From NCBI GenBank assembly GCA_030646915.1, contig JAUSKT010000014.1, positions 30,409-94,408 of the forward strand: a stretch of 64,000 bases of DNA. Direction: 5' to 3'. Of the stretch, positions 1,184 to 45,646 are shown one piece after another. The translations under genes and the position numbers were made by a program. The notes under the pieces are model-generated. The model worked only from the letters and a program-made list of their open reading frames with translations, was not told where the DNA came from and did not search any database. Source of the stretch: a bacterium. Lineage in GTDB: Bacteria > Patescibacteriota > Minisyncoccia > UBA6257 > 02-FULL-45-10c. Each line of letters starts with the position of its first letter. Position 1 is the first letter of the stretch.

Positions 1184-3537
1184 AACAAAAAAAGACATTT
1201 ATAGTAAGAGGAATGGATTGCGCTTCATGCGCTTTGACTATTGAAAGAGCATTGAAAGAAATGCCGGAATTGTCATCGACTAATGTCAATTACGCGACCG
1301 AAAAAGCGGTGGTTGAAAGCAGTGATATGATTGACGGAGAAAAAATAATCGCAAAAGTTAAAGATAAAACCGGTTATGAATTAGTGGAAGAGCAATCTTT
1401 GGCGCCTAGCCACGAGGGTCATCAAATGGGAGGTCCCGCCTCCGCTGAAGCTCCGGCGGGCGAGCATGACCACGCCAAAATGCTAAAGCAAGAAGAAATT
1501 AAAAAGCTCTGGAATAAATTTTTTATTGGAGCAGTTTTATCCGGCATTATTATATTTTTAAGTTTGCCAGATTATTTTCCGTTTATAGCCGATTTTTTGC
1601 CGAGGAGCGCGCGATTTTTCTTGCTGATGATTTTGGCAACGCCGGTAGAATTTTGGGTAGGCAAGCAGTTTTGGATCAGCAGTTGGGCATCAATTAAGCG
1701 CTGGAATGTAAGCATGGATACTTTGGTGGCGCTTGGAACCGGCGCGGCCTATTTTTCCGGCGTAGCAATAACTTTTTTGGAAGTTGCTAATATGCAGTCA
1801 CAAATAAAATTAGACGTGTATTTTGATGTGGCGGCGGTAGTTATCACTTTAGTGATTTTGGGGAAATATTTGGAAGCAAAAGCCAAGGGTTCCGCCTCGG
1901 AAGCCATAAAAAAACTTTTGAAATTGCAAGCAAAAACCGCCCATCTTTTACATGAAGGCAAGCACGAGATGGAAGTGCCGATTGAAGAAGTTAAAGCTGG
2001 AGATATTCTTATCGTGAAACCGGGAGAAAAAATTCCAGTGGACGGAATTATTATTGAAGGCGTGGCGACTTTGGATGAATCAATGGTTACTGGCGAATCC
2101 TTGCCGGTTGATAAGAAAGAGGGTGATGCGGTTATTGGGGCGACCATAAATAAAACTTCCAGCTTTAAAATGAAAGCGACAAAAGTCGGTAAAGATTCTT
2201 TCTTATCGCAAATAGTCGCTATGGTTGAGGCAGCTCAAGCTAGCCGCGCGCCAATTCAGAAACTGGCCGATCTAGTAGTCTCTTATTTTGTTCCGGCGGT
2301 ATTAATAATGGCAGCGGCTACTTTTGTTATTTGGCTTATTTTTGGAGAGTCCCAGGCGCTTTCTTTCGCGCTGGTGAATTCCATCGCGGTGCTGGTGGTG
2401 GCTTGTCCTTGCGCTATGGGTTTGGCGACTCCGACTTCCATTATGGTTGGCACTGGCAAGGCGGCCGAGCATGGGATCATTATCCGCGATGCCGAAGCGC
2501 TGGAATTGGCTGGTAAGGTGGATGCGGTGGTTTTAGATAAAACCGGCACTATTACAAAAGGAGAACCGTCCGTAACTGATGTAGTTGCATTTTTAGAGGA
2601 TGATAAAAATAAAGTTGTGCAATACGCCGCATCTTTGGAAAAATTATCTGAACATCCGATTGCGCAATCTGTTGTTGCTTATGCGGCAAGTTTAGGATCT
2701 CTTTCATCACATCCACTGGATAAAGCCGTGAAAGCTGCCGCGGAAAGGAAGCAACTTTACGCAGTGAAGAATTTTAGCGCTATTCCCGGGCAGGGTATTG
2801 AAGGAGATGTTGCAACAGACAAGGGCGATAAAAAACTTTTTTTTGGGAATGCGGCTTTGATGCAATCAAAAAAAATTGATATTTCAACTAAGCAGGAATT
2901 AATTGAAAAATTAGAAAATGACGGCAAAACTCTTTTGCTTCTTGCCGATAATCAAGTGCTTCTTGGAATCATTGCTGTGGCAGACACTATTAAACCAACT
3001 GCCAAAGAAGCTATCCAAAAATTGCGTTCCCTTGGCTTAGAGGTATGGCTGATTACCGGCGATAATGAGCGGACCGCGCGCGCGATCGCGCAAATTGTCG
3101 GCATTGATAAGGTAATGGCGCGAGTTTTGCCTCAGGATAAAGCAAATAAAATAAAAGAATTGCAGGCTCGCGGTAAAAAAGTGGCGATGGTTGGCGACGG
3201 GATTAATGACGCGCCAGCGCTTACACAGGCAGATGTCGGCATTGCCATTGGCACTGGAACGGACATTGCGATTGAATCCGCGGATATTACTTTGGTGGCG
3301 GGGGATCCGCTGGGAGTGGCTAATGCCATTATGATCAGCCGGAAAACTCTTACTAATATCAAGCAGAATTTGTTTTGGGCTTTTATTTATAACATTCTTT
3401 TGATTCCGGTGGCCGCGGGCATTTTTTGGCCTTTATGGGGAATTCTTTTAAATCCGATTTTAGCCGGCGCGGCAATGGCTTTTTCTTCTTTATCCGTGGT
3501 TTTAAATTCCTTACGATTAAAAAAAATTAAGTTGTAA
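1180..3537 (+). CDS. copA: copper-translocating P1B-type ATPase
   Basis: N-terminal HMA domain (GMDCASC), His-rich linker, CPC membrane motif ([12 protein letters not shown]), DKTGT phosphorylation site, GDGINDAP hinge; start overlaps ackA stop by 4 nt. Confidence 0.92.
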
Positions 3538-11655: not shown

Positions 11656-11678
11656 TTAAAAGCAATATAATTTATGAG

Positions 11679-11782
11679 TCCCGTTAGAAAATTAATAAAT
11701 ATGTTTATATATAGCAATAATTTTATAGAGCAATATCGGAAGTCTTTAGTCGCAAAGACGTTTAATTTAATTTTCTAACGGG
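11679..11782 (+). repeat. start-codon palindromic element (MITE-like), copy 1, abutting rpsG ATG
   Basis: TCCCGTTAGAAAATTAA...TTAATTTTCTAACGGG terminal inverted repeat; flanked by ATGAG (11674-11678) and ATGAG (11783-11787); through-ORF 11674..11778. Confidence 0.85.
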
Positions 11783-12250
11783 ATGAGAAAAAAACGAAAT
11801 TATAAAAGAGACCACGAACCGGATTTAAATTATGGAAGCGTATTAATCGGCCGGTTTATTAATTATTTAATGGAAGACGGTAAAAAATTAGTTGCGGAGA
11901 AAGTGATGTATAAAGCTTTAGATGAAGTTAAAAAAGCAACCGGACAGGAGCCTTTGCAGGTTTTTGAAAAAGCAATGGAAAACGTGACGCCTATGGTGGA
12001 AGTTACTTCCAAAAGAGTTGGAGGCGCTAATTATCAAGTTCCCCGCGAAGTTCGGCAGGAAAGGAAATTTATGCTTGCTGCCCGCTGGATGATTGACGCA
12101 GCCAGGAAAAAAACCGGAAAACCAATGTCAGCCCGGCTTGCGGAAGAATTGGTGCTTGCCTCTAAAAATGAAGGTTCTGCGATTAAAAAGAAATTAGATA
12201 CTCATAGAATGGCAGAAGCTAACCGGGCATTTGCTCATTTTGCTAGATAA
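11783..12250 (+). CDS. rpsG: 30S ribosomal protein S7
   Basis: 155 aa with the S7 signature region (VEVTSKRVGGANYQVP), str-operon position. Confidence 0.95.
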   Translation: MRKKRNYKRDHEPDLNYGSVLIGRFINYLMEDGKKLVAEKVMYKALDEVKKATGQEPLQVFEKAMENVTPMVEVTSKRVGGANYQVPREVRQERKFMLAARWMIDAARKKTGKPMSARLAEELVLASKNEGSAIKKKLDTHRMAEANRAFAHFAR

Positions 12251-12684: not shown

Positions 12685-14787
12685 ATGCCAAGACAATATC
12701 CGATTGAAAAAACCAGAGATATCGGGATTATCGCCCATATCGACGCCGGGAAAACTACCGTTTCAGAACGGATTCTTTTTTATACAGGAGTTTCCCATAA
12801 AATCGGCGAGGTGCACGAAGGAGACACAGTAATGGATTGGATGGAGCAAGAGCGTGAACGGGGCATTACGATTACTTCTGCCGCTACCACTTGTTTTTGG
12901 ACGCCTACTTATCATCATGGCGATAAAAAATTTGAGCACCGGATTAATTTGATTGATACTCCGGGACATATTGATTTTACTGTTGAAGTAAAAAGATCGC
13001 TTCGGGTTTTGGACGGCGCAGTAGTGGTATTTGACGGAGTTTCCGGAGTGGAACCGCAGTCGGAAACTAACTGGCGTTATGCGGATGAATATAAAGTTCC
13101 AAGGCTTTGTTTTATTAATAAATTAGATAGGACTGGCGCAAGTTTTGAGGGAAGCTATAAATCTATTTTAGATAGGCTGACTTTAAATGCTATGCCAATT
13201 CAGCTTCCAATCGGATTGGAAAGCAATTTTGAAGGAATCGTGGATCTTTTAAAAATGAAAGCTTATCGGTTTGAAGGAGATAAGGGCGAAAAGATAATTG
13301 AGGGAGAAATTCCGGCATCAATGCTTGAAGAGGCAAAAAAACGGCGCCATGAATTAATTGAAAAAGTGATTGAACAAGACGATGAATTAATGGCGCGTTA
13401 TCTTGAAGGCAAAGAGCCGGATTTGGAATCTCTAAAAAAGACTTTGCGCAAAGCCACGATTGCGAATACTATAGTTCCGGTAGTTTGCGGTTCAGCATTA
13501 AAAAATAAAGGAGTTCAGCTGGTTTTGGACGCAGTAGTGGATTATCTTCCGTCTCCGGCGGATGTGCCTCCGGTAAAAGGAATTAATCCGAATAATGGCG
13601 AAGAAATAACCAGAGAGCCGAAAGATGACGGACCGATTGCAGCGCTGGCTTTTAAAATCGCTTCCGATCCGTTTGTGGGAAGTTTAACTTTCTTCAGAGT
13701 TTATTCCGGCACGGTAAAACGGGGCAGTTATATTTTAAATTCCACTAAAGGAGATAAGGAAAGAATCGGCCGGATGGTTCGGATGCACGCAAACCATCGG
13801 GAAGAAGTGGAAGAAGTTTATGCCGGAGATTTGGGCGCGATTGTCGGATTAAAAAATACCACTACCGGAGACAGCCTTTGTGATGAAGAAAATCCGATTA
13901 TTTTAGAAAAAATTATTTTTCCAGAACCGGTTATTTCTTTGCGTATTGATCCAAAAACCAAAGCCGACCAGGAAAAAATGGGTATTGCGCTTCGCCGTTT
14001 AGGAGAAGAAGACCCAACTTTTCGGGTTACTGGAGATGCGGAAACTGGGGAAACTATTATTTGGGGCATGGGCGAATTGCATTTGGAAATTATCGTTGAC
14101 CGGATGAAGCGGGAATTTGGCGTGCTTGTTAATACTGGCCGCCCGCAGGTTGCTTATAGGGAAACTATACGATCTGAAGCAGAAGCTGAAGGAAAATATA
14201 TCAAGCAATCCGGAGGCAAGGGACAATACGGCCATGTGCGATTGCGCGTTGAGCCGATGGAGCGCGGAAAAGGATTTGAATTTATTGATGACATTAAAGG
14301 AGGTTCGATTCCTAAAGAATTTATCAAACCAGTTGAAAAGGGCATTATTGAAGCTATGGCAAAAGGAGTTGTTGCCGGCTATGCATTAAATGATATGAGA
14401 GTTACTTTATATGATGGTTCTTACCACGAAGTTGATTCGTCTGAATCTGCTTTTAAAATTGCCGGTTCTATGGCTTTGCAGGAAGCAGCCAGGCGGGCTA
14501 AGCCGGTTTTACTTGAGCCGATTATGAAAGTCCAGACTTTGGTTCCATCGGAATTTATGGGAGATATTACCGGTGACATCAGTTCCAAGCGAGGAAAAAT
14601 TGAAGCAATGACAGATCGCGCAAATATTAAAGTAATTGATTCTCAGGTTCCGCTTTCAGAAATGTTCGGTTATGCAACAAAGCTTCGCTCTATGTCTCAA
14701 GGCCGCGGCAACTTTACTATGGAATTTGATCATTACGAAGAAACGCCGAATAATGTTGCAGAGCTTATAAAAGAAGGTAAAAAATAG
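12685..14787 (+). CDS. fusA: elongation factor G
   Basis: 700 aa; [18 protein letters not shown] GTPase motifs and full EF-G domain complement. Confidence 0.97.
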
Positions 14788-14988: not shown

Positions 14989-15160
14989 AGTACTACGCCT
15001 AGGTGTAGTACTGGACAAGTGAAGCTTTAAATATAAAAAACCCCCAGACTTTAGTCCGTGGATAGTTGGCATATCCCGCACTACACCTAGGTGTAGTGCG
15101 GGATAAGTGAAGCTTATGATATCAAAGAAACCGCGGCCGTAAGGCCGCGGAGTTTCACTT
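14989..15160. other. two tandem hairpin+AAGTGAAGCTT units followed by a GNRA-capped GC hairpin (candidate small RNA or protein-binding module)
   Basis: hairpin 14989-15012 and perfect 32-nt palindrome 15073-15104 share core ACTACRCCTAGGTGTAGT; each is followed by AAGTGAAGCTT (15017-15027, 15105-15115); CCGCGGCC-GTAA-GGCCGCGG at 15131-15150; AAGTGAA can pair with TTCACTT at 15154-15160. Confidence 0.5.
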
Positions 15161-15165
15161 AAATT

Positions 15166-15196
15166 AAAAAAACCGCTTTTCAGCGGTTTTGTTTTT
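15166..15196. terminator. bidirectional rho-independent terminator
   Basis: A7-ACCGC-TTTTCA-GCGGT-TTTGTTTTT; U-runs on both strands; overlaps the stop of the minus-strand CPBP-like gene. Confidence 0.75.
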
Positions 15197-16102: not shown

Positions 16103-17302
16103 ATGGCAGAAAAAGCCAAATTCGAACGAAAAAAGCCGCACGTAAACGTCGGCACAATCGGACACGTCGACCACGGTAAAACTACTTTAACCGCGGCTAT
16201 TACACACATCGCTTTTTTAAAAGGTTGGGCATCAAAAGAAGAGCGGGTAGATCAAATTGATAATGCTCCGGAAGAAAAAGCCCGCGGTATTACAATTGCT
16301 TTGCACCATTCAGAATATGAATCCGAAAAGCGCCACTATGCGCACGTGGATGCTCCAGGCCACGCAGATTACATTAAAAACATGATTACCGGCGCTGCCC
16401 AGATGGACGGCGCTATTATAGTAGTTTCCGCAGCAGACGGCCCAATGCCTCAAACTCGAGAGCATATTTTGCTTGCCCGCCAAGTCGGCGTGCCAGCTTT
16501 GGTTGTATTCTTGAATAAAGTGGATATGGTAGACGACCTAGAATTAGTTGATTTAGTTGAATCAGAAGTAAGGGAACTTTTAAAGAAATATGAATTTCCT
16601 GGTGATACTACGCCAGTTATCCGAGGTTCAGCCTTAAAAGCTTTGGAAACAAAATCAGCCGATTCTCCGGAAGCAAAGCCGATTTTAGATTTAATGAAAG
16701 CTTTAGATGAATTTATTCCGGACCCAGTTCGAGATACCAGCAAGCCTTTTCTTATGCCTATTGAGGATATTTTCTCAATTGAAGGCCGTGGCACAGTGGT
16801 TACTGGCAGAATAGAAAGAGGAATCGTTAAGATTAATGAAGAAATTGAAGTTGTCGGACTTACGCCAACTATGAAAACTGTTGTTACCGGCATTGAAATG
16901 TTTAATAAGCTTTTAGATGAAGGCCGAGCTGGCGATAATGTGGGTATCTTGCTTAGGGGTTTGAAAAAAGAAGACGTTCAAAGAGGTCAAGTTTTGACAA
17001 AGCCAGGCTCAGTTACTCCTCATACTGATTTTGAAACTGAAGTTTATGTGCTTAGTAAAGAAGAAGGCGGCCGCCACACCCCATTTTTCAAGGGTTATAA
17101 GCCTCAATTTTATATCCGAACTACTGATGTTACCGGTGAAGTAATTTTGCCGGAAGGTATGGAAATGGTAATGCCTGGCGACACTGTCAAGCTTACTGTT
17201 AAGTTAATTGCTCCTGTAGCTCTCGAAGAAAAACAGCGCTTTGCTATCCGCGAAGGAGGCAAAACGGTGGGAGCGGGAGTAGTTCTAAAGATTCAGAAAT
17301 AA
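16103..17302 (+). CDS. tuf: elongation factor Tu
   Basis: 399 aa; [19 protein letters not shown] motifs. Confidence 0.98.
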
Positions 17303-18788: not shown

Positions 18789-18794
18789 AATGGA

Positions 18795-18898
18795 TCCTGT
18801 TAGAAAATTAATAACTATGTTTAATCATATCCAAAATTTTATAGAGCAATATCAGAAGTCTTCAGTCGGCAAGATGTTTAATTTAATTTTCTAACGGG
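18795..18898 (+). repeat. start-codon palindromic element, copy 2, abutting rplW ATG
   Basis: TCCTGTTAGAAAATTAA...TTAATTTTCTAACGGG; flanked by ATGGA (18790-18794) and ATGGA (18899-18903); through-ORF 18790..18894. Confidence 0.85.
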
Positions 18899-19177
18899 AT
18901 GGACAAATTTTTAATAAAAAAACCTATTGTTACTGAAAAATCTACTGATCTTGGCGCTTTAAATAAGTATGTTTTTTTGGTTGACGAAAAAATTACTAAA
19001 TCGGAGGCCAAAAAAGTTTTAGAAAAAATTTATAATGTTCAGATACTAAGAACAAATGTTATTAATGTTAAAGGCAAGACCCGCCGATTAGGCAATAACG
19101 TTGGCATTAAGCCTGGATATAAAAAAATTATCGCGACTCTTGCAAAAGGCCAAAAATTAGATATATTACCGCAATAG
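18899..19177 (+). CDS. rplW: 50S ribosomal protein L23
   Basis: 92 aa; PIVTEKS start region and operon order. Confidence 0.9.
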   Translation: MDKFLIKKPIVTEKSTDLGALNKYVFLVDEKITKSEAKKVLEKIYNVQILRTNVINVKGKTRRLGNNVGIKPGYKKIIATLAKGQKLDILPQ

Positions 19178-22853: not shown

Positions 22854-22862
22854 ATATATGAA

Positions 22863-22967
22863 TCCCGTTAGAAAATTAATAAATATGTATAAATATATAA
22901 ATAATTCAACCAAGCAATATAGAAAGTCTTTAGTCGGAAAGACGTTAGTTTTAATTTTCTAAACGGG
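22863..22967 (+). repeat. start-codon palindromic element, copy 3, abutting rplX ATG
   Basis: TCCCGTTAGAAAATTAA...TTAATTTTCTAAACGGG (one bulged A); flanked by ATGAA (22858-22862) and ATGAA (22968-22972); through-ORF 22858..22962. Confidence 0.85.
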
Positions 22968-24951: not shown

Positions 24952-24974
24952 GTCATATAGTGTAATTTATGAAA

Positions 24975-25079
24975 TCCCGTTAGAAAATTAATAAATATGT
25001 TTAAATATAGCAATAATTTTATAAAGCAATATAGCAAGTCTTATGTCGGTAAGACGTTGAATTTAATTTTCTAAACGGG
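24975..25079 (+). repeat. start-codon palindromic element, copy 4, abutting rplR ATG
   Basis: same ends with a bulged A; flanked by ATGAAA (24969-24974) and ATGAAA (25080-25085); the 6-nt duplication puts the upstream ATG out of frame (ATG AAA TCC CGT TAG); internal hairpin carries compensatory GTCTTA/TAAGAC. Confidence 0.85.
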
Positions 25080-26388: not shown

Positions 26389-26398
26389 AGGTGATGGA

Positions 26399-26502
26399 TC
26401 CCGTTAGAAAATTAATAAATATGTTTATATATAGCAATAATTTTATAGAGCAATATCAGAAGTCTTTAGTCGGAAAGACGTTTAATTTAATTTTCTAACG
26501 GG
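26399..26502 (+). repeat. start-codon palindromic element, copy 5, abutting secY ATG
   Basis: perfect 16-nt TIR; flanked by ATGGA (26394-26398) and ATGGA (26503-26507); upstream duplicate preceded by AAGGTG; through-ORF 26394..26498. Confidence 0.85.
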
Positions 26503-27765
26503 ATGGAGAAATTACTTATTTTATTAAAAACGCCGGAGTTAAGAAAAAAGATTTTAGTGGTAGCTAGCCTGCTTTTAGTTTTTAGAGTTTTTTCTGCCAT
26601 ACCAATTCCTGGCGTTGATGTAGACCGCTTAAGCGCTTTTTTATCTTCCAACCAATTGCTAGGATTTTTTAACATTTTTTCTGGAGGAGCCCTTTCCACG
26701 CTTTCTATCGTGATGTTGGGGGTGGGCCCTTATATTACCGCGACTATTATCATGCAGCTTCTTACGATGATCTTTCCCCACTTAAAAGAAATTTATTATG
26801 AGCAGGGTGAAGCCGGCCGGGCGAAATTTAACAGGCTTTCTCATTATCTTACGGTTCCGCTTGCCGGATTGCAGGGATATGGATTTTTAAATCTTTTAAT
26901 TTCTCAAAAAGTTTTATTGCCATTATCTCCATTTGATACCGTAAGAAATATTCTCTTAATTACCGCGGGGTCACTTTTTTTGGTTTGGCTTGGGGAATTA
27001 ATCACCGAGCAGAAAATCGGTAATGGAGTTTCTGTTTTGATTTTTGCCGGAATCGTCAGCCAATTACCTAGTACAATTCAAGGGCTGTTTTTAAGTTATG
27101 ATCCTAGCTTAGTGCCAACTTACGTAGCTTTTTTGGTTTTAAGCGTGATAGTAATCGCTGGAGTAGTTTTTATTAATGAAGGAGAGCGGAAAGTTCCTGT
27201 TTCTTATTCTAAGCGAGTTCGTGGTAATCGGGTTTATGGCGGAGTCTCCAGCTACCTACCTTTAAAAGTCAATCAAGCGGGAGTCATTCCAATTATTTTT
27301 GCTATTTCTCTTCTGCTCTTTCCCCAATTCTTAGCTCAGGTTTCTGCTGTATTTTCTCCGGATCTTTCTATACGCCTGACTGAGTTAGTATCCAAAGTTT
27401 TGGGTAATCCCAGCCTTTACAGCGCTTTATACTTTATATTAGTAGTAATTTTTACTTATTTTTATACTGCTGTTACTTTTGATCCTCAGGAAATTTCTAA
27501 AAACCTTCAGAGAAGCGGCGGTTTTATTCCCGGCATCCGTCCCGGCCAGCCCACTGGCGAATTTTTATCCAAAGTAATTAATAGGACAACTTTGTTTGGC
27601 GCATTATTTTTAGGCACATTAGCTGTTTTGCCAAATATAATGCAGATTTTGACCGGAGTTCAGCTTTTGGCCTTGGGAGGCACATCGCTTTTAATTGTTG
27701 TATCTGTGGCCTTAGAAATAATGAAACAACTTGATTCACAGCTTGTTTTGAGAGAGTACGAGTAG
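26503..27765 (+). CDS. secY: preprotein translocase subunit SecY
   Basis: 420 aa, 10 TM; GVGPYITATIIMQLL and GELITEQKIGNG motifs. Confidence 0.96.
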   Translation: MEKLLILLKTPELRKKILVVASLLLVFRVFSAIPIPGVDVDRLSAFLSSNQLLGFFNIFSGGALSTLSIVMLGVGPYITATIIMQLLTMIFPHLKEIYYEQGEAGRAKFNRLSHYLTVPLAGLQGYGFLNLLISQKVLLPLSPFDTVRNILLITAGSLFLVWLGELITEQKIGNGVSVLIFAGIVSQLPSTIQGLFLSYDPSLVPTYVAFLVLSVIVIAGVVFINEGERKVPVSYSKRVRGNRVYGGVSSYLPLKVNQAGVIPIIFAISLLLFPQFLAQVSAVFSPDLSIRLTELVSKVLGNPSLYSALYFILVVIFTYFYTAVTFDPQEISKNLQRSGGFIPGIRPGQPTGEFLSKVINRTTLFGALFLGTLAVLPNIMQILTGVQLLALGGTSLLIVVSVALEIMKQLDSQLVLREYE

Positions 27766-27958
27766 CCACTCAGCCATTTTTCCAAACCAGCCAATATATT
27801 TCTATGAGAACCGCGGTTCTCTTGTCCTAGCTACAAGAGCCCGCTACCCCTCGGCAGAAAAAATCCGACCAAATAGGTCGGATAACAAGCTTTTTCTGCC
27901 TCCGAAGTTTCTCTACGAAATATATTGGCTGTTTTTGTTTGATAAAAATAGCCTCGCT
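27766..27958 (+). repeat. post-stop structured repeat, family B, copy 1
   Basis: ~190 nt, near-identical to 29423-29610 except for a central hairpin; begins right after secY TAG; outer stem CAAACCAGCCAATATATTTC / GAAATATATTGGCTG; 16-nt palindrome GAGAACCGCGGTTCTC at 27806-27821. Confidence 0.8.
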
Positions 27959-29422: not shown

Positions 29423-29610
29423 CTCGCATATTTTTCCAAACCAGCCAGTATATTCCTACGAGAACCGCGGTTCTCTTGTTCTAGCTACAAGAGCCCGCTA
29501 CCCCTCGGCAGAAAAATCCTTCGACAAGCTCAGGAAACAAGCTTTTTCTGCCTGCGGAGTTTCTCTACGAAATATATCGGCTGTTTTGTTTGATAAAAAT
29601 ATTCTCGCTT
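29423..29610 (+). repeat. post-stop structured repeat, family B, copy 2
   Basis: begins right after map TAG; same modules as copy 1; followed (29611-29685) by a segment resembling the right arm of family C. Confidence 0.8.
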
Positions 29611-45396: not shown

Positions 45397-45646
45397 GCTT
45401 AATCTTTTTTAACATAAAACCCGCCACTAGGAGCCTTGCGGCTTATACGGGTTTCCCCATATAACGCAGGACGCGCCCTAATGACGGGTTTGATGCGTCC
45501 TGCTTTGTGCCATGCCCTATATTATAGAGTTTAGGCAATTCAGTTGTTATTTAACAGATTAACATTATTGGCCTTAAATTGGAAGATTTAGCTTGAAAAA
45601 TGGGGTTAAATGAGGTAAAATTAATTATATTTAAATAGATATTAAT

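Follow-up and report, generated by a model that had tools for sequence, protein, structure and literature searches.

A MITE-like element at gene start codons in Patescibacteria with a putative translational relay to the host gene

The window, that is, the whole stretch of 64,000 nucleotides that was analysed, carries five copies of a short repeated element of about 103 nt each (n = 5), all on the + strand and each at the junction of two neighboring genes. These junctions are S12|S7 (copy 1, 11680-11782), L4|L23 (copy 2, 18796-18898), L14|L24 (copy 3, 22864-22967), L6|L18 (copy 4, 24976-25079) and L15|SecY (copy 5, 26400-26502), and the genes were confirmed by Pfam. By its L18 sequence, the window has its closest named relatives among Candidatus Harrisonbacteria. 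Every copy is found between a duplicated ATGRR and the true ATG of the downstream gene (S7, L23, L24, L18 and SecY, respectively). The duplicated 5-mers are ATGAG, ATGGA, ATGAA, ATGAA(A) and ATGGA for copies 1-5, and in each copy both sides match. In the window copies the duplicated AUG lies 1-18 nt downstream of the stop codon that ends the upstream gene. The ends of the element are the 16-nt arm CCCGTTAGAAAATTAA and its reverse complement. The window holds 10 matches to this pair of arms where 2.5 are expected by chance, and a count of 10 was reached by none of 100 shuffles.

Copy 4, to which the stretch 24975-25079 of the original prediction corresponds, lies in front of rplR, the gene of ribosomal protein L18 (25080-25436, + strand as all features given here). 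The left target-site duplication ATGAAA at 24969-24974 is an upstream duplicate of the rplR start and reads MKSR-stop; the upstream ATG is out of frame because the duplicate is 6 nt long. It is followed by the left terminal inverted repeat, T plus CCCGTTAGAAAATTAA, at 24975-24991, which is the 5′ strand of the closing stem. A mini-ORF runs from an internal ATG at 24997 to a TAA at 25072-25074 (24997-25074) and encodes MFKYSNNFIKQYSKSYVGKTLNLIF. It has 25 codons and its stop is placed 5 nt upstream of the rplR ATG. Within this mini-ORF we find the internal hairpin GTCTTAT-GTCG-GTAAGAC at 25038-25055 with a covarying stem and a GUCG loop motif. The right terminal inverted repeat TTAATTTTCTAAACGGG at 25063-25079 forms the 3′ strand of the closing stem. 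This arm has one extra A compared with copies 1, 2 and 5 and carries stop codons in all three frames. The rplR ATG is directly 3′ of the element, whose end probably contributes the A of this codon.

Including its duplication, copy 1 spans 11674-11782 with the duplicated ATGAG at 11674-11678, a T at 11679, the arms at 11680-11695 and 11767-11782, an internal ATG at 11701, the hairpin at 11742-11759, a stop at 11776-11778 and the rpsG ATG at 11783. Copy 2 (18790-18898) has the duplicated ATGGA at 18790-18794, arms at 18796-18811 and 18883-18898, the internal ATG at 18817, the hairpin at 18858-18875 with one G.U pair, the stop at 18892-18894 and the rplW ATG at 18899. Its left arm is a CCTG variant which introduces a U.G pair. 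For copy 3 (22858-22967) the respective positions are 22858-22862 for ATGAA, 22864-22879 and 22951-22967 for the arms (the latter with the extra A), 22885 for the internal ATG, 22926-22943 for the hairpin, 22960-22962 for the stop and 22968 for the rplX ATG. Finally, copy 5 (26394-26502) consists of ATGGA at 26394-26398, arms at 26400-26415 and 26487-26502, an internal ATG at 26421, the hairpin at 26462-26479 and a stop at 26496-26498, and is followed by the secY ATG at 26503.

We searched for further copies of the element. A scan of one genome per species with both arms as the pattern yielded 45 loci, nearly all of which are from Patescibacteria/CPR MAGs (Paceibacteria, Liptonbacteria, Sungiibacteria, Harrisonbacteria, Brennerbacteria and others). 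A metagenome scan in which only the right arm and the ATG were required gave at least 120 stretches. The collection thus comprises at least 138 distinct copies from CPR genomes and metagenomes; as these were found via exact arm patterns, the apparent conservation of the required arm is inflated. The interiors are highly diverged with a median pairwise identity of 0.51. Among 150 arm pairs in the fetched DNA the element is 44-108 nt long with a tight peak at 100-103 nt, and the core arms of 13-17 bp read CCCGTTAGAAAAT / ATTTTCTAACGGG. Several element-bearing contigs are found per MAG. The copies are single units apart from one tandem pair (L006), and in nearly every case the ATG of a real ORF begins 0 nt after the element. 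The same arms are found in a hairpin-less subfamily, which is also located at start codons, in both orientations. One copy is placed within the anticodon loop of a tRNA-Lys-like gene, close to the canonical site of introns. No copies were detected in viral contigs or in records of phages and plasmids, which gave only chance AT-rich matches. No Rfam family matched the element at its gathering score. With an E-value limit of 10 we only obtained matches at chance level, none of them to a ribozyme or intron family, and the sole family spanning the element at this loose limit was MIR812 (E = 5.5, 19.3 bits vs. a gathering score of 80). In the literature on CPR/Patescibacteria which we searched and in a 2024 review on MITEs neither this family nor start-codon MITEs in CPR are described.

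The flanks of the element point to insertion. When only the right arm was required, the upstream ATG was present in 90 of 118 copies and lost in 28, and among the 82 copies whose duplicate is 5 nt long, the 5-mers of the two sides are identical in 79; the duplicate is ATGAA in 67 copies, ATGGA in 8 and ATGAG in 6 (all counts among the matches listed). A few copies have duplicates of 4 or 6 nt. Most of the copies without an upstream ATG look like copies with a decayed duplicate (ACGAAT, CTGAAT, ATCAAT and similar). In relatives with 67-76% L18 identity and the same L18 start sequence we found empty, tight junctions. All four junctions that are present in the relative L166 are empty (L4|L23, L14|L24, L6|L18 and L15|SecY), and the L6|L18 junction is also empty in L168, L169 and L171. 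In L166 the gap between L6 and L18 is 6 nt, and a single ATGAAAAATATTAAATTAAAAAAT is found at the L18 start, the same sequence that follows the element in the window. No arm was detected within the 20-kb ribosomal protein region of L166, L168 and L169. A closer relative (L170, 96% L18 identity) is uninformative, its contig being only 874 nt long with L18 truncated and joined to unrelated DNA.

The element is framed by a 17-bp terminal inverted repeat, T-CCCGTTAGAAAATTAA ... TTAATTTTCTAA(A)CGGG-A. Of 128 copies, 119 have T...A as the terminal base pair of the element and 3 have C...G, and in the latter the downstream start codon is GTG. The simplest reading of this correspondence would be a 17-bp inverted repeat and a 4-bp TGRR duplication, with the last base of the element completing the regenerated start codon; alternatively, the duplication may be the 5-bp ATGRR. 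The host ATG directly follows the element because the target duplication contains the start codon. With its inverted repeats, its target duplication and the empty sites in relatives the element is a MITE in anatomy. In 1.08 Mb of fetched loci we found no autonomous partner or transposase and no pair of arms that are 140-6000 bp apart. Two other classes of sites were considered on reading the sequence. The arms hold a core-like GTTAGAA and an inverse-core-like TTCTAAC as in integron attC sites, but their order is reversed, and an attC site is also ruled out by the location at start codons inside essential operons and by the target duplications. Ends of the IS200/IS605 type are ruled out by the inverted repeats and the target duplication.

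A reading frame crosses the element. From the duplicated ATG this frame reads CCC GTT AGA AAA TTA and then enters the interior. In the genome-derived set the interior is free of stops in this frame in 80% of the copies, compared with 9-11% for the other sense frames and 14% for shuffles. In order not to count related copies repeatedly, they were collapsed into clusters at 70% interior identity; single linkage at 65% chained 105 of 127 elements into a single cluster and was dropped for 70-80%. The frame reads through in 33 of 42 clusters, and the other five frames are open in only 4-16 of the 42. For hairpin-bearing copies the frame is open in 79-87%, and 66 of 76 copies with the hairpin motif read through. 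Over all copies, 88 of 127 read through and 39 stop early, with early stops in 29 of the 51 copies that lack the hairpin motif, including the L023/L049 subfamily. Stops in all frames of the right arm ensure that this reading frame always ends beside the host ATG: the distance from the frame stop to the host ATG is -4 (ATGA overlap) in 24 copies, +4 in 46, +5 in 7 and +12/13 in 11. ATGs after the left arm are in this frame in 81 cases vs. 17 and 16 in the other frames and are mostly found at nucleotide 22 or 25. A promoter-like TTAATA-18-AATAAT inside the elements occurs at background frequency (46 found vs. 44 expected).

The open frame bears on the idea that the element is removed at the level of RNA or decoding, either by intron-like excision or by a ribosome that hops from the duplicated ATGAA to the true one. 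Programmed bypass, as in T4 gene 60 or the mitochondrial byps, uses matching take-off and landing codons around an untranslated gap. Here the helix of the arms would bring such matching sequences together, and the copy in the tRNA-Lys-like anticodon loop lies where an intron might be expected. An untranslated gap, however, would not keep its frame open or place stops by the host ATG. In addition, many copies have lost the upstream ATG and no ribozyme or intron family of Rfam was matched. We thus regard a removal of this kind as most improbable. Programmed translational bypass in particular is rejected: matching ATGRR sequences are present, but the frame of the gap is open with stops beside the landing site.

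The arms deserve a separate consideration, as the original prediction had proposed that they pair as a perfect 16-bp duplex with the duplicated ATG and the true ATG at its base. The arms are able to pair in all five copies, both ATGs are at the base of the helix, and the fold predicted for copy 4 has the A and the U of the true AUG paired as well. Only copies 1 and 5 have a perfect duplex of this length. Copies 3 and 4 form a helix of 12 bp, a one-nucleotide bulge and 4 bp plus two flanking A-U pairs, because the right arm TTAATTTTCTAAACGGG contains the extra A (within the run A25073-25075 in copy 4); in copy 4, these flanking pairs involve the A and the U of the rplR start codon. The U.G pair in the closing stem of copy 2, where the left arm has CCTG opposite CGGG, was correctly foreseen. 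Compared with shuffles, copy 4 folds with a z-score of -4.6 on the + strand and -7.0 on the - strand. Both strands thus fold far better than shuffles, and the thermodynamics of a single copy cannot show that the structure acts in RNA.

In a larger set of copies, the substitutions in the closing stem do not favor pairing. When only the right arm was required, the 13-nt core of the left arm was 94-100% conserved per position with a median of about 98% (among the matches listed), and the inner three arm positions vary freely. Substitutions in the core comprise 11 wobble-keeping transitions at 8 sites, 5 pair-breaking transitions at 5 sites and 12 transversions. The closing stem is conserved as sequence, and there is no covariation evidence for a role in RNA. 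The behavior of the arms is that of the terminal inverted repeats of transposons, and most likely their sequence is kept because an enzyme that moves the element reads them.

These observations also weigh on the suggestion that RNase III cuts the arm helix and thereby segments the ribosomal protein polycistron or leaves a very short leader. The arms form a duplex of 13-18 bp with the host AUG at its base, and there is a precedent in the Correia MITEs of Neisseria, which are of similar size and whose inverted-repeat hairpin is bound or cleaved by RNase III, with cuts known to occur in both arms (PMC2649163, PMC10969869). The helix is, however, short and rich in A-U pairs; in copies 3 and 4 it contains a bulge, in many members it comprises just about 13 bp, and its arms show sequence conservation without covariation. 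Moreover, the frame is kept open from before or just inside the left arm to a stop inside the right arm; cleavage in both arms would cut off the start of the mini-ORF from its stop and from the host ATG. The five insertions are also recent and lineage-specific and do not belong to a conserved operon architecture. We therefore consider segmentation by RNase III improbable, and cleavage by this enzyme is unlikely to be the main function of the element.

The internal hairpin behaves differently from the closing stem. In the window, the stems are exactly as the original prediction had described them: GTCTTT-AGTCGG-AAAGAC in copies 3 and 5, the loop AGTCGC in copy 1, GTCTTA-TGTCGG-TAAGAC with a T-A to A-T swap in copy 4, and GTCTT...AAGAT with a G.T pair in copy 2. 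For the whole collection we required that a GYCR motif located 16-19 nt from the right arm be enclosed by a stem in which 5 or more of the 7 pairs are Watson-Crick. By this measure 66 of 138 copies have the hairpin; shuffles have it in 4.2 copies on average and in 10 at most. Across 58 distinct stems, pairing of the two strands within a copy reaches 6.03 of 7 positions, whereas a 5′ strand combined with 3′ strands taken from other copies reaches 3.57 of 7. Plain MAFFT alignments place the hairpin out of register because the loop lengths vary, and we therefore used a motif-anchored script and a covariance model. The model was built from seven copies of equal loop geometry, and 61 distinct hairpin-bearing copies were aligned to it. 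In this alignment 88.3% of the cells are paired compared with 60.0% in shuffles, and double-sided changes are found in all seven pairs (106 cells vs. 27 in shuffles). The covariation score is 0.644 vs. 0.212 for shuffles and was reached by none of 500 shuffles. If the 3′ partner is slid by 1-3 columns, at most 54% of the cells are paired and the score is at most 0.175. We note that an alignment fitted to a model flatters the structure; the model-free script analysis agrees. The strong covariation of the internal hairpin in these 61 copies supports selection for structure, as had been argued from the five window copies, and not for the peptide; for the closing stem the same argument fails, since covariation is absent there.

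The hairpin is further tied to one strand. Mismatches in the stem are G.U in 18 cases and A.C in 4 (p = 0.004), and the sense strand folds better than the antisense strand (-5.17 vs. -4.26 kcal/mol, p = 0.008). With respect to the downstream gene, 63 hairpin copies are in sense and none in antisense orientation. Single-stranded DNA tolerates G.T pairs as well, and the sense-strand specificity is thus no proof of an action in RNA.

Relative to the open frame, the loop motif GYCR occurs in each of the three reading frames (25, 25 and 16 copies), so that it is the nucleic acid and not the peptide that is constrained. This speaks against a functional small protein encoded by the mini-ORF whose conservation would be reflected in the nucleotide sequence. 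Such a protein would be in line with the open frame in most copies and with the recurrent ends, MNPVRKL at the N-terminus and LIF at the C-terminus. But these ends are merely the translated arms, the interior peptide is not conserved, and the C-terminus switches with the length of the element (...LIF, ...FNFLTG and others). As the mini-ORF peptides had no match in NCBIfam either, a functional small protein appears hardly credible to us.

Could the hairpin act in transcription? In a translation-sensitive attenuator, transcription would end or pause at the hairpin with its T-rich right arm as long as the hairpin is not melted by ribosomes on the mini-ORF. In line with this, the hairpin is inside the mini-ORF and is followed by TTTTAATTTTCT within 4-9 nt. 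The stems are, however, short with a high AT content, and the T run is interrupted and set off from the stem by a spacer. None of the five window hairpins was called in a terminator scan, and in the consensus scan the hairpins are not terminator-like. Five such sites in essential ribosomal protein operons would also be costly. An attenuator is in our view very unlikely.

More serious is the proposal that arms and hairpin are signals in DNA only. Both would serve transposition, with the hairpin as a site where single-stranded DNA is bound or nicked; the RNA structure would be incidental and the open frame would reflect selection against polarity. The sequence-invariant arms resemble transposase sites, the target duplication and the empty sites in relatives are as expected, and a conserved loop on a variable stem is typical of hairpins which are recognized by proteins. 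Transposons that move as single-stranded DNA have a strict strand and orientation bias. The bias of the hairpin fits such transposons, and G.T pairs are also tolerated in single-stranded DNA. On the other hand, the hairpin copies are 63:0 in sense orientation and keep the frame open (66/76), which ties the hairpin to the translated strand. The subfamily without the hairpin keeps the arms and the start-codon sites in both orientations; the hairpin is thus not needed for insertion as such. Furthermore, a candidate enzyme was not found in the 1.08 Mb of fetched loci. An explanation by DNA signals alone is therefore possible but doubtful.

We rather suggest, with moderate confidence, that the family is a non-autonomous MITE-like element of CPR/Patescibacteria with a translational relay to the host gene. 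Here we infer from the sequences that the element is transcribed, that the mini-ORF is used and coupled to the host gene, and that the hairpin has a role in this process. The relay could proceed in these steps. The element would be transcribed together with the operon. In the transcript, the arms would pair, and with the A and U of the host AUG drawn into the helix the start would be sequestered, while the AU-rich loop would expose the in-frame internal AUG just after the left arm. The hairpin with its stem of 5-8 bp and its loop ending in GUCG would form 16-19 nt upstream of the right arm. Ribosomes could enter either at the duplicated AUG, often right after terminating on the gene upstream, or at the internal one. 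The mini-ORF, about 25-34 codons long, would then take them across the hairpin and the right arm, both of which they would melt. Termination would follow at -4 (AUGA overlap), +4/5 or +12 nt relative to the host AUG, and the host gene could finally be started by reinitiation or on the newly unfolded start site.

Such a relay would explain how an insertion at the start codon of essential, tightly packed genes can be tolerated, and it would account for the start-codon position, the strict orientation, the open frame, the stops in the right arm and the tight length. A Shine-Dalgarno-like motif is found in only 8 of 74 ORFs of the window. With such motifs being rare, a start codon buried in a helix should be costly or hard to use unless the helix is opened. 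The alternative raised by the original prediction, namely that the elements gate initiation, is near to the relay which we favor on this evidence. We note, however, that about a fifth of the copies have lost the upstream ATG and about a third stop early, so the relay is not universal. Also, the relay by itself does not explain the conservation of the hairpin with the GUCG loop. Our best guess is that the hairpin would act within the relay as an RNA element or would be bound by a factor. It might aid the relay, for instance if it refolds behind a ribosome that terminates; other possible roles would be the binding of a factor or a single-stranded DNA signal for the mobilizing enzyme.

The proposed relay would in essence be ordinary translational coupling by RNA unfolding and/or termination-reinitiation, which is delivered here by a mobile element. 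In known cases of coupling (rpmI-rplT, MS2 coat-lysis, NTGA overlaps) a short upstream ORF ends near or overlaps a start codon that is sequestered in a structure (PMC12548453). In contrast to these coupled pairs, the whole device with start, ORF, stop and sequestering helix would be portable and would arrive with the element.

The most similar arrangement known to us from the literature searched is that of the MIRUs, apparently mobile intercistronic repeats of 40-100 bp which insert at start codons in polycistronic operons (PMC12548453, citing Supply et al. 1997; PMC3184786). Their ORFs overlap the adjacent genes of the polycistron (PMC3184786), and coupling between the internal ORF and the gene downstream occurs at -4 nt, an arrangement held to keep the cost of the insertion minimal (PMC12548453, a 2025 review). 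Like the MIRUs, the CPR element is located at the start codon with a gap of 0 nt and has an internal ORF that ends -4, +4/5 or +12 nt from it. MIRUs are mycobacterial and best known as tandem direct repeats (VNTRs) with imperfect inverted ends. The CPR element, in contrast, occurs as single units and has a strict inverted repeat of 13-17 bp, the ATGRR duplication and the covarying GUCG hairpin. It is set apart from the MIRUs by description and host phylum.

The Correia elements (CREE/NEMIS) have 26-bp repeats and a TA duplication, and they can create promoters. They are MITEs of Neisseria of about 100-150 bp which are co-transcribed and whose repeat hairpin affects expression and is bound or cut by RNase III (PMC2649163, PMC10969869). 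The CPR element differs from them in its ATGRR/TGRR duplication, its shorter repeats of 13-17 bp, the targeting of start codons and the frame that is open across the element. Another comparison is offered by the Rickettsia palindromic elements (RPE), which are likewise small palindromic mobile repeats in reduced genomes, contain ORFs and tolerate translation. RPEs are inserted in frame within protein-coding genes, whose products then include them. The CPR element, in contrast, is a separate cistron in front of the gene because its right arm has a stop in each frame. Its logic thus seems MIRU-like and its anatomy is that of a MITE; relative to the literature searched the family itself appears to be new.

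A more far-reaching view can be offered only tentatively. The copies could belong to a CPR-wide and probably still active superfamily that homes to start codons and insulates itself translationally by the mini-ORF relay. The last base of the element would complete the start codon, the GUCG hairpin would be an RNA signal for reinitiation or for the binding of a factor, and the arms could enclose cargo such as a tRNA gene. Some copies might have been co-opted to tune the stoichiometry of ribosomal protein operons in genomes that make nearly no use of Shine-Dalgarno sequences.

In summary, the element shows how selfish DNA can colonize the most essential and tightly packed operons of very small genomes. 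It lands on a start codon, rebuilds this start and would bring along its own device for the passage of ribosomes. For CPR MAGs there are practical consequences of these elements: ribosomal protein operons show unexplained gaps of about 110 nt, small ORFs are predicted spuriously, and starts may be mis-called. The conserved arms are an easily searched marker, and the hairpin points to a partner, be it RNA or protein. If the relay works as we suggest, the element would be a natural and portable cassette for translational coupling.

The element, a mobile element of about 103 nt which inserts at gene start codons, has a terminal base pair that co-varies. This pair is T...A in 119 of 128 copies and C...G in three of the 128, and in the latter the gene that follows starts with GTG. 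The observation concerns the flanks of the element copies at the loci L004, L143, L122 and L100, which like all L-numbered loci lie outside the window. The element itself probably contributes the initial base of the restored start codon; the repeat would thus be 17 bp long and the target-site duplication would comprise the four base pairs TGRR.

No duplication is visible in a class of copies at L046, L068, L093, L133, L163, L165 and L139, in which the left flank reads (A)CTTGT instead of ATGRR-T. With the exception of the copy at L139, all copies of this class are directly followed by the ATG of an open reading frame of at least 70 codons. Copies of a subfamily without the internal GTCG hairpin may point with or against the gene downstream (L023, L049, L067, L090, L111 and L144 versus L074 and L100), and in the more frequent of the two orientations the upstream frame runs into a stop after nine codons. 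A tandem pair of copies is present at L006 (566-666 and 672-770), separated by the 5-nt spacer ATAAT.

The copy at L139, a metagenome contig, is situated on the minus strand at about 3106-3213 (flanks 3040-3260). Its interior is an intact tRNA-Pro(UGG), and the entire copy lies within the anticodon loop of a gene resembling tRNA-Lys(CUU). With ARAGORN the outer tRNA is called only once the element has been deleted, leaving a residual 8-nt 'intron' GTATGAAG. Either the arms, that is, the terminal inverted repeats, are able to carry cargo, or the element has broken up a tRNA or acts intron-like in one.

The closest relative of the L18 protein encoded 3' of copy 4 (96% identity) is found on L170, a metagenome contig of 874 nt. 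There L18 is cut off at about residue 28 and is followed by opposite-strand DNA to which it is unrelated. The junction may reflect a break in the assembly, or else the DNA may have been rearranged at the element site or close to it.

The window also contains a second repeat unrelated to the element (27776-27935 and 29430-29587; two blocks with 95% and 89% identity), which sits shortly downstream of secY and of the second gene after it and contains the palindrome GAGAACCGCGGTTCTC. The sole Rfam match in the window is a LOOT RNA (RF03000) at 45432-45537 on the minus strand, whose 61.6 bits exceed the gathering score. Between a 700-aa open reading frame ending at 14787 and a 399-aa one starting at 16103, presumably EF-G and EF-Tu, lies a pair of 47-nt direct repeats (14992-15038 and 15080-15126; 83% identity), and 3' of it come two strong hairpins that resemble bidirectional terminators (15131-15150 and 15169-15190).

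A Shine-Dalgarno-like 4-mer at positions -20 to -4 precedes only eight of the 74 open reading frames of at least 90 aa in the window. The organism appears to make little use of Shine-Dalgarno sequences.
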